Made by a program: the position numbers and the translations under genes | Shown: in pieces, positions 54,211 to 54,443 of the stretch | Layout of the letters: each line of letters opens with the position of its first letter | Numbering within the stretch: position 1 is the first letter of the stretch | The notes under the pieces: model-generated | Databases searched by the model: none | What the model was told of the DNA's origin: nothing | Seen by the model: only the letters and a program-made list of their open reading frames with translations | Source of the DNA: a virus | Taxonomy: Duplodnaviria; Caudoviricetes | Direction: 5' to 3' (one strand) | DNA length: 64,000 nt | IMG/VR virus record: IMGVR_UViG_3300042305_001561 | Span: 895-64,894 of that record

Positions 54211-54443
54211 GAATTACCAGTGTGGGGCTCTCACCCACCATACACTATTTTTCTCCGTTATGGCCCGAACATATCGTGCACTCTGTTCTTGGAACATTAC
54301 CCGCTTCTTTTGCCTTGGCTCACGTTTAGCGAATAATGTCCGGCTTATCGGGCGTCGTACCTGTCACTTGGTCTTGCAGAAACGACCCACAAGATTGCTG
54401 ATGTGTATGCTACGACCGCTAAGACTCTGCGTCTTACTGGTAA
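54211..54443 (-). ncRNA. tRNA/tmRNA-mimic structured RNA (~230 nt)
   Basis: Acceptor-like UUACCAGU/ACUGGUAA, T-arm GUGGG-UGAGAGC-CCCAC, CAUACAC/GUGUAUG helix enclosing a structured insert. Confidence 0.7.

Follow-up and report, generated by a model that had tools for sequence, protein, structure and literature searches.

The DNA analysed here, a 64,000-nucleotide (nt) stretch of IMG/VR virus record IMGVR_UViG_3300042305_001561 (the window), carries within its transfer RNA (tRNA) gene array a 230-nt element that, judged from a comparison of its copies, is a real, conserved, non-coding RNA gene. The RNA belongs to a family that is not in Rfam, and it is left blank by Rfam-based annotation. Its two ends meet in an 8-bp acceptor-like stem (P1) stacked on a 5-bp T-arm-like hairpin, with a spacing to the neighbouring genes like that of a tRNA. 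On balance, we think it probable that the element is a stable structured RNA of about 230 nt, which would be excised via its tRNA-like ends and would act in trans through its conserved body. The region had been singled out in a first-pass annotation made from the letters alone; its observation is confirmed, with every complementarity that it named present at 54211-54443 on the minus strand, and its interpretation as a whole is partly supported.

Structure and conservation of the RNA

The final structure model (helices P1 to P8 and the T-arm, Table 1) was examined on 15 full-length copies, of which 13 are distinct; L004 and L005 (nhmmer score equal to that of L003) and the incomplete L051 were omitted. 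Over the 13 sequences, 97.4% of the 870 pair cells are standard pairs, and two-sided changes are seen at eight pairs (14 cells). None of 500 shuffles equalled this number, a control that overstates significance because the sequences are close kin; the fairer control, in which the 3′ partners were slid by 1-3 columns, gave 29-45% pairing and 0-1 two-sided pairs. The G.U pairs are compatible only with the minus strand.

As far as these sequences can tell, covariation supports the internal helices P7, P5, P2 and P6b only. P7, the long G.U-rich helix already seen in the first-pass annotation, has two-sided changes in five of its 14 pairs (106-149, 109-146, 111-144, 113-142 and 116-139), and its apex is shortened by an 8-nt deletion in three of the 13 copies. 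Pair 55-67 of P5 occurs as C-G, U.G or U-A, and three more pairs of this hairpin vary on one side and are still paired. For the D-position hairpin P2, also correctly recognized before, pair 13-19 is converted from C-G to U-A in one of the 13 copies, and the loop reads GCAGA or GCAAA. The helix GCCCGA/UCGGGC, likewise proposed earlier, pairs in the window, but over the copies its pairing amounts to only 84.6%, and four of the 13 have lost two of its pairs. Since it is contradicted by this variation, it is better replaced by the combination of CCG/CGG and GCC/GGC (P6), in which each variable position either covaries or is unpaired: pair 101-180 (in P6b) changes from C-G to U-A in four copies, pair 100-181 occurs as G-C in 12 copies and as G.U in one, and the pairs of 93-95 with 187-189 are invariant. 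P6 is predicted to close a three-way junction with P7 and P8.

Seven pairs of P1 are invariant, the eighth (8-223) being U-A in 11 copies, U.G in one and a gap in one; P3 is invariant in all 13 copies, and P8 belongs to an invariant block of 26 nt (152-177). Within the T-loop, U1, G2, G4 and A5 are invariant, and three positions vary: 3 (A or C), 6 (G or A) and 7 (C or U); we take U1, G4 and A5 to be the counterparts of tRNA positions U54, R57 and A58. The trailer UUCAUUUAU is identical across every copy with an aligned flank. The chance level of the end stem and T-arm layout, which is present in the sequence as first described, was gauged by mononucleotide shuffles of the 249-nt gap: a 5-bp/7-nt hairpin whose adjoining end strand can pair with a site 20 nt or more upstream was obtained in 26 of 20000 shuffles when the stem had 7 bp and in 8 of 20000 when it had 8 bp. 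P3 and P4 together would form a pseudoknot. The P4 duplex energy is −6.9, compared with −0.7 for the minimum free energy (MFE) alternative, and forcing P4 costs 0.2 kcal/mol (−70.2 versus −70.4), a gap with which thermodynamics is unable to choose between P4 and that alternative.

The length variants also bear on coding potential. Three copies have, besides the 8-nt deletion at the P7 apex, a second deletion some 60 nt beyond it, which removes 1 nt (in one copy 2 nt); since the two deletions flank the invariant block 152-177, the frame of this block differs between the length variants on both strands. On the RNA strand, no frame retains its peptide between the length variants, the longest stop-free run included, in agreement with the earlier statement that there is no obvious tag open reading frame (ORF). 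That the element is not an RNA gene at all, being a neutral spacer, a DNA-level site or a small plus-strand protein gene, we regard as extremely improbable. An ATG-started ORF of 79 amino acids (aa) does span the element on the plus strand (54209-54448), and the corresponding 77-codon antisense frame is open in eight of the 13 copies; however, that frame is broken or shortened (to 55-59 codons) in five, the 8- and 1-nt deletions shift it across invariant sequence, the predicted peptide has a high content of Cys, Arg and Leu, and there are no neighbour genes on the plus strand. The compensatory changes and the strand-specific G.U pairs speak against it as well.

Also rejected was an antisense regulator of a target in the window, where the perfect complements of the RNA reach at most 12 nt (two) and 11 nt (three), which is about the chance level. 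A plus-strand reading that resembles RNase P (CCGGCUUAUCGG) was dropped too: searches of both strands with the RNase P models gave no match, and the minus strand alone accommodates the G.U pairs.

Table 1. Parts of the RNA and its neighbouring genes in window coordinates (RNA position p corresponds to window coordinate 54444−p).
Feature	Window coordinates	Strand	Remarks
Whole tRNA-like RNA	54214..54443	(-)	RNA positions 1-230; covariance model R1 289.8 bits on the window
P1 5′ strand UUACCAGU, acceptor-like	54436..54443	(-)	positions 1-8, pairs with 223-230
P2, D-position hairpin AAGAC-GCAGA-GUCUU	54421..54435	(-)	positions 9-23, directly after P1
P3 5′ strand GUCGUA	54411..54416	(-)	positions 28-33, complementary to 85-90; in the MFE fold
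P4 5′ strand CAUACAC	54403..54409	(-)	positions 35-41, complementary to 199-205; candidate pseudoknot strand inside the P3 domain
P5 hairpin UCUUGUGGG-UCGUU-UCUGCAAGA	54372..54394	(-)	positions 50-72; 100% of cells paired
P3 3′ strand UACGAC	54354..54359	(-)	positions 85-90
P6 5′ strand: CCG (93-95), internal loop AUAA, GCC (100-102)	54342..54351	(-)	
P7, long G.U-rich hairpin	54291..54341	(-)	positions 103-153; apical part dispensable
P8 hairpin GAACAGAGUGCACGAUAUGUUC	54267..54288	(-)	positions 156-177; invariant in 13/13 copies
P6 3′ strand: GGC (179-181), internal loop, CGG (187-189)	54255..54265	(-)	
P4 3′ strand GUGUAUG	54239..54245	(-)	positions 199-205, abuts the T-arm
T-arm-like hairpin GUGGG-UGAGAGC-CCCAC	54222..54238	(-)	positions 206-222, directly abuts the acceptor strand; stem invariant
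P1 3′ strand ACUGGUAA	54214..54221	(-)	positions 223-230; duplex energy −9.1 kcal/mol
Conserved 3′ trailer UUCAUUUAU	54205..54213	(-)	U, then UCA at the tRNA CCA site, then U-rich spacer (UUUAU)
Downstream tRNA-Asp(GUC)	54130..54203	(-)	10 nt after P1; Rfam tRNA model 42.4 bits; missed by ARAGORN
202-aa AMOP-domain ORF between tRNA-Trp and the element	54453..55061	(-)	separate from the RNA; missing in many copies
Upstream tRNA-Trp(CCA)	55095..55168	(-)	7-8 nt before the element in several relatives

Homologues and genomic setting

The virus record is a fragment of 64.9 kb with an estimated completeness of about 25%. Relatives of its RNA ligase occur in jumbo and huge phages; the source of the element is a lake jumbo phage, and its carriers are a group of lake jumbo phages. 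The window contains 19 tRNAs by Rfam (16 by ARAGORN) and a transfer-messenger RNA (tmRNA) called by both programs, and all of these are on the minus strand, as is the element itself, which lies at 54443..54214 between the 202-aa ORF and tRNA-Asp.

Copies of the element are present in 17 other contigs. Eight are IMG/VR contigs, found by exact-word scans of viral contigs with words from the element, and nine are metagenome contigs found by one 20-mer, all of which also match the covariance model R1 (109-297 bits; one is cut by the contig end). Seven of the 15 stretches returned by an 18-mer scan (L041-L043, L045-L048) were discarded as chance matches, sharing only the 18-mer and looking like coding sequence, and a scan of species-representative genomes gave a single chance match in a metagenome-assembled genome, with 6.4 bits and no nearby tRNAs. 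A blastn search of phage records at a distant setting found no homologue. Across 30 sources, R1 matches only the window and L035, the further, weak matches (E = 0.28) being a tRNA-Leu. The L035 locus, with a ligase match 68% identical, carries the element, whereas a complete 297-kb relative (G001) with a ligase 78% identical lacks it, and R1 found no match on the tRNA array of the latter.

In all 15 contexts examined, the element is located inside a tRNA array, on the tRNA strand and 3′ of tRNA-Trp. The next gene downstream is tRNA-Asp, Lys, Tyr or Arg, often after 6-10 nt, and the spacers around the element are often 7-10 nt, the same as between tRNAs. On the upstream side, 7-8 nt separate the end of tRNA-Trp from P1 in several copies (L002, L003, L006, L007, L050, L054 and L055 are examples); tRNA-Trp lies farther away in three (L035, L049 and L053), and in three others (the window, L056 and L057) an ORF of about 220-243 aa stands between it and the element. 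The 202-aa ORF of the window, which has an AMOP match (Pfam E = 1.1e-07), is missing in L002, L003, L006 and others, and in DNA contigs from both of the two lake runs examined 54446 is joined directly to 55090, so that the ORF (segment 54447-55089) represents a presence/absence polymorphism; a peptide-pattern search of viral contigs found no relatives of it. The identity to the window copy is 0.83-1.00 for the element and 0.55-1.00 for the neighbouring tRNAs of the same contigs. The element is thus as conserved as its neighbouring tRNAs.

Such a setting could also be expected of a cis-acting part of the tRNA precursor, that is, a folded spacer or former tRNA with the task of arranging how or when its neighbours are processed (RNase P or RNase E might, for example, enter or pause there) or of protecting the transcript. 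The element always sits among tRNA genes and shares their strand, on which neither a sigma-70-like promoter nor an intrinsic terminator adjoins it, its A/U-rich trailer is conserved, and the UCA at the tRNA CCA site suggests descent from a tRNA gene, a descent that we infer and for which there is no proof. However, body blocks of 26-27 nt are invariant, the three-domain architecture with its covarying helices far exceeds the needs of a spacer, and the element stays constant while its neighbours change (Asp, Lys, Tyr or Arg on the 3′ side, an ORF or tRNA-Asn on the 5′ side). We accord a purely cis-acting role a small, though not trivial, likelihood.

Other genes of these arrays are unusual as well. 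An atypical tRNA-Lys(UUU)-like gene replaces tRNA-Asp directly 3′ of the element in L007, L035/L044 and L049 (89 nt by ARAGORN in L049). The arrays of related phages (L057, L049, L018, L020, L022, L023, L026 and L029; for example L020:18491-18593, plus strand) contain genes of about 101-103 nt that resemble tRNA genes, having a 7-bp acceptor, D and T loops of the canonical kind and an anticodon region expanded by about 27 nt; these receive no default ARAGORN call and inconsistent identities once introns are allowed. Short ORF-free gaps in the tRNA array of the complete 297-kb relative (L061, G001:C1:86000-105000; gaps 309-514, 1537-1792 and 2123-2231) hold further CCA-ending tRNA-like sequences below the Rfam gathering score, together with a hairpin and U-tail (GAACAG...CUGUUCAUUUUUU) that is met again in L049, immediately upstream of the element. 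In the window, three Rfam-model tRNAs (42-45 bits) were missed by ARAGORN (54130-54203, 55259-55330 and 44179-44250, minus strand), and an unusually long tRNA of 91-94 nt at 44260-44353 (minus strand) is called Ile by ARAGORN, with the anticodon UAU. Two ORFs on the minus strand may be added: one of 744 aa in the tRNA-rich region, with a two-partner secretion (TPS) domain (46466-48700, E = 5e-17), and one of 213 aa inside the array, which matches NUMOD3 and, weakly and below the cutoff, GIY-YIG/SegE (49807-50448).

Comparison with tRNA, tmRNA and other structured RNAs

Rfam searches on both strands, at the gathering score and at E ≤ 10, gave no match inside the element, and ARAGORN in its default, intron, tmRNA and mitochondrial modes made no call in it, as the first-pass annotation had anticipated. 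Canonical D and T loops (G18G19, U54-U55-C56) and a conserved anticodon loop were sought in the 13 copies and not found. The roles of decoy or ribosome ligand suggested in the first-pass annotation are speculative, and no anticodon-loop mimic is evident in the element.

Bacterial tRNAs that bear a group I intron resemble the element in having tRNA-like ends split by a long insert, and one could suppose that a functional tRNA arises once splicing has removed an insert of about 145-155 nt from the transcript of an interrupted tRNA gene. ARAGORN at an 80% threshold with introns on (-ps80) indeed draws a tRNA-Arg(UCG) with a 145-nt intron exactly here. This forced, sub-threshold drawing is the only one obtained, with no call at default settings with or without introns; its anticodon stem is mismatched, its 19-nt ‘variable arm’ is unpaired, and its ‘anticodon’ is UCG in nine copies and UCA in four. 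There are no cloverleaf exons, the most conserved and covarying parts lie in the supposed intron, and the CCA encoded by all 19 tRNAs of the window is missing. Inside the element, the group I and group II models give no match at E ≤ 10 (a weak group II row, E 9.3, lies outside it at 54124-54156), and the group I introns known to us are longer than 145 nt. An intron-bearing tRNA was rejected on these grounds and is in our opinion very unlikely.

According to the first-pass annotation, the RNA mirrors tmRNA architecture. Like tmRNA (RF00023), the element has a tRNA-like module at its ends and a long structured insert in place of the anticodon arm, and P4 may abut the T-arm as P2 does in tmRNA; moreover, 19 tRNAs and a tmRNA point to a heavy investment of the phage in translation. 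A tmRNA-like or otherwise aminoacylated ribosome ligand could be imagined from these features, but the earlier wording was overstated: it rests on invariant helices, and none of the tmRNA-defining features tested was found. The pair at position 3 (3-228) is A-U in all 13 copies instead of G.U, as the same annotation had correctly remarked in noting the lack of G3.U70; no CCA is encoded, no tag frame is conserved and the T-loop is not canonical. The tmRNA models (RF00023 and the permuted form) have no match in 54205-54443 at the gathering score or at E ≤ 10, a weak tmRNA_permuted row (E 3.5) falling outside the element at 54000-54087, and the relaxed ARAGORN tmRNA mode (-m, 80% threshold) returned 0 genes. 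Finally, a real, canonical tmRNA is encoded separately, as had also been pointed out. We have therefore rejected the element as a tmRNA and attach hardly any likelihood to the wider notion of an aminoacylated ribosome ligand. The canonical tmRNA (35271-35651, minus strand, 91.1 bits) has a 22-residue tag, AKRNLAKTSFLSVSRKSEVAVA.

Bacterial and phage Y RNAs of the YrlA type are also non-coding RNAs with a tRNA-mimicking module. RNase P cuts the YrlA of M. smegmatis, whose acceptor-like stem has 7 bp, and CCA is added to this RNA; one criterion for a YrlA gene is a Ro60/TROVE gene on its strand at a distance of up to about 4 kb (PMC4201824). The ends of YrlA form the Ro-binding stem and the tRNA-like part is internal, whereas in the element the ends themselves form the acceptor-like stem. 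The YrlA motif GNCGAAN0-1G is absent from the element by eye, with no scripted search made, the Y RNA models of Rfam give no match at E ≤ 10, and TROVE/Ro60 (PF05731) was found in none of four records (G000, G006-G008, all of them fragments), in a search whose controls matched two of the 14 named control genomes. With this different topology, no model match and no TROVE gene in the four fragmentary records, a Y RNA was rejected.

GOLLD and ROOL are large structured RNAs of unknown function that often occur in phages or prophages next to tRNA genes, and in these respects they are comparable to the element. They are, however, much larger (hundreds of nt) and are Rfam families, neither of which matches the element, and to our knowledge they have no tRNA-like ends. 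A related thought is that the RNA is catalytic, or is the RNA subunit of a phage ribonucleoprotein, and uses its tRNA-like ends for excision only. The extreme conservation of the single-stranded joints and of the P8 hairpin would suit such a role, as would the possible pseudoknot and the three-way junction; on the other side, Rfam yields no ribozyme or ribonucleoprotein family even at E ≤ 10, no protein gene regularly stands beside the element, and TROVE/Ro60 was not found in the four fragment records searched. We judge this role improbable.

The T4 precedent and a proposed mode of action

By analogy, the closest known RNA is the species 1 RNA of phage T4 (rnaC), the likeness being one of architecture and position and not of detectable descent. 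T4 rnaC (139 nt, species 1) and rnaD (119 nt, species 2) follow directly after tRNA-Arg at the end of the tRNA cluster, with spacers of 1-6 nt; like the element, they are small RNAs whose genes share the strand of a phage tRNA cluster, inside which or at the end of which they lie a few nt from a tRNA. The end of rnaC reads CCGGG-UUCGAAU-CCCGG and then continues into the strand with which the 5′ end is paired, so that, as in the element, a T-arm, which in rnaC is canonical, stands directly 5′ of the closing strand and the body is folded and expanded. The T4 cluster holds the GIY-YIG homing endonuclease gene segB, and the array of the element also carries a GIY-YIG-type ORF (weak, sub-cutoff). 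The two differ in size (about 230 nt against 139 and 119 nt), in the T-loop (the non-canonical UGAGAGC against UUCGAAU in rnaC) and in the end stem (a perfect 8 bp against one with two U.U mismatches in rnaC), and there is no detectable homology, R1 with filters off giving no match on rnaC/rnaD (L060:2909-3172). Rfam has no family for rnaC or rnaD. T4 species 1 RNA is reportedly processed by RNase P, according to literature of the 1970s. In layout and genomic position, the element is a larger counterpart of the stable RNAs of the T4 tRNA cluster. The first-pass annotation had spoken of a new tRNA-mimic class; what stands of this is a structured RNA with a tRNA-like end module and without an Rfam family, while the T4 precedent had been overlooked. 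A literature search outside the older T4 work turned up neither this RNA nor any account of tRNA-like RNAs in the arrays of jumbo phages.

An acceptor/T-arm minihelix is recognized by RNase P, by 3′ trimming enzymes and by the CCA-adding enzyme. Since the ends of the element could be recognized in the same way, the RNA, presumably transcribed on the minus strand within a polycistronic tRNA precursor, would be released and end-protected in the manner of a tRNA through its acceptor-like stem and T-arm-like hairpin; maturation by tRNA-processing enzymes, as suggested earlier, is a reasonable inference. The body would then be the working part, consisting of two domains (P3/P5 and the P6-P7-P8 three-way junction) possibly clamped to the T-arm by P4, and it most likely binds a protein or RNA partner in trans.

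Several observations weigh against an excised and trans-acting RNA of this kind. The T-loop has a G where tRNAs have U55, the D-position loop (GCAGA/GCAAA) is without GG, the end stem has 8 bp, and there is no linker between P1 and the D-position hairpin. At the 3′ end, where the 19 tRNAs of the window all read N-CCA and then an A/U-rich spacer, the element reads A-A-U-UCA, that is, an unpaired U and UCA, followed by UUUAU, with no encoded CCA, as the first-pass annotation had seen. The 13 sequences have a mean column identity of 95%, and P1, the T-arm, P3, P4 and P8 are without informative variation in them, so that the comparison neither supports nor refutes these helices. The whole molecule folds at −70.4 kcal/mol with z = −2.46, a modest gain over shuffles, of which four in 200 fold as well. 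The family is narrow: R1 matches none of five related records, two of them complete, and the element is found in five of 33 RNA-ligase loci (L008-L011 and L035), many of which may end too early. No protein gene is constantly adjacent to the element in the 15 contexts. As to expression, one 193-nt metatranscriptome contig lies wholly inside the element (54240-54432), its one difference being a known variant, which gives a weak hint that the RNA is made; this contig is single and of low depth, the RNA library may contain DNA, and such contigs show neither ends nor strand. RNA run X23 leaves the flanks of the element uncovered, an absence that is not evidence, and in run X24 (RNA by guess) the cover falls on tRNA stretches only.

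Taken together, phage tRNA arrays, which are usually read as lists of tRNAs, are shown here to house a second kind of tenant, a conserved RNA with an elaborate fold, about three times the size of a tRNA and with ends like those of one. RNAC and RNAD of T4 have been known in the tRNA cluster since the 1970s with no function assigned, and in two later accounts their function is stated as unknown (PMC3014915, PMC9697503). An independent example that is larger and more structured, and comes from uncultured jumbo phages, suggests a recurring solution and not an oddity of T4, and its defined structure with invariant blocks can be used for mutation, for probing and as bait. It is conceivable, though we would call it speculative, that the element is the first of a class of large jumbo-phage tRNA mimics, in which a tRNA-like handle gives access to host tRNA pathways and an invariant body brings a new activity there. 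If this is true, the pathways would be those of RNase P and of the enzyme that adds CCA, and possibly of the ribosome or of tRNA-directed defence enzymes; the body might sequester or redirect a host factor during infection, and the element would offer a route to the function of T4 RNAC and RNAD, to which none has been assigned for decades.

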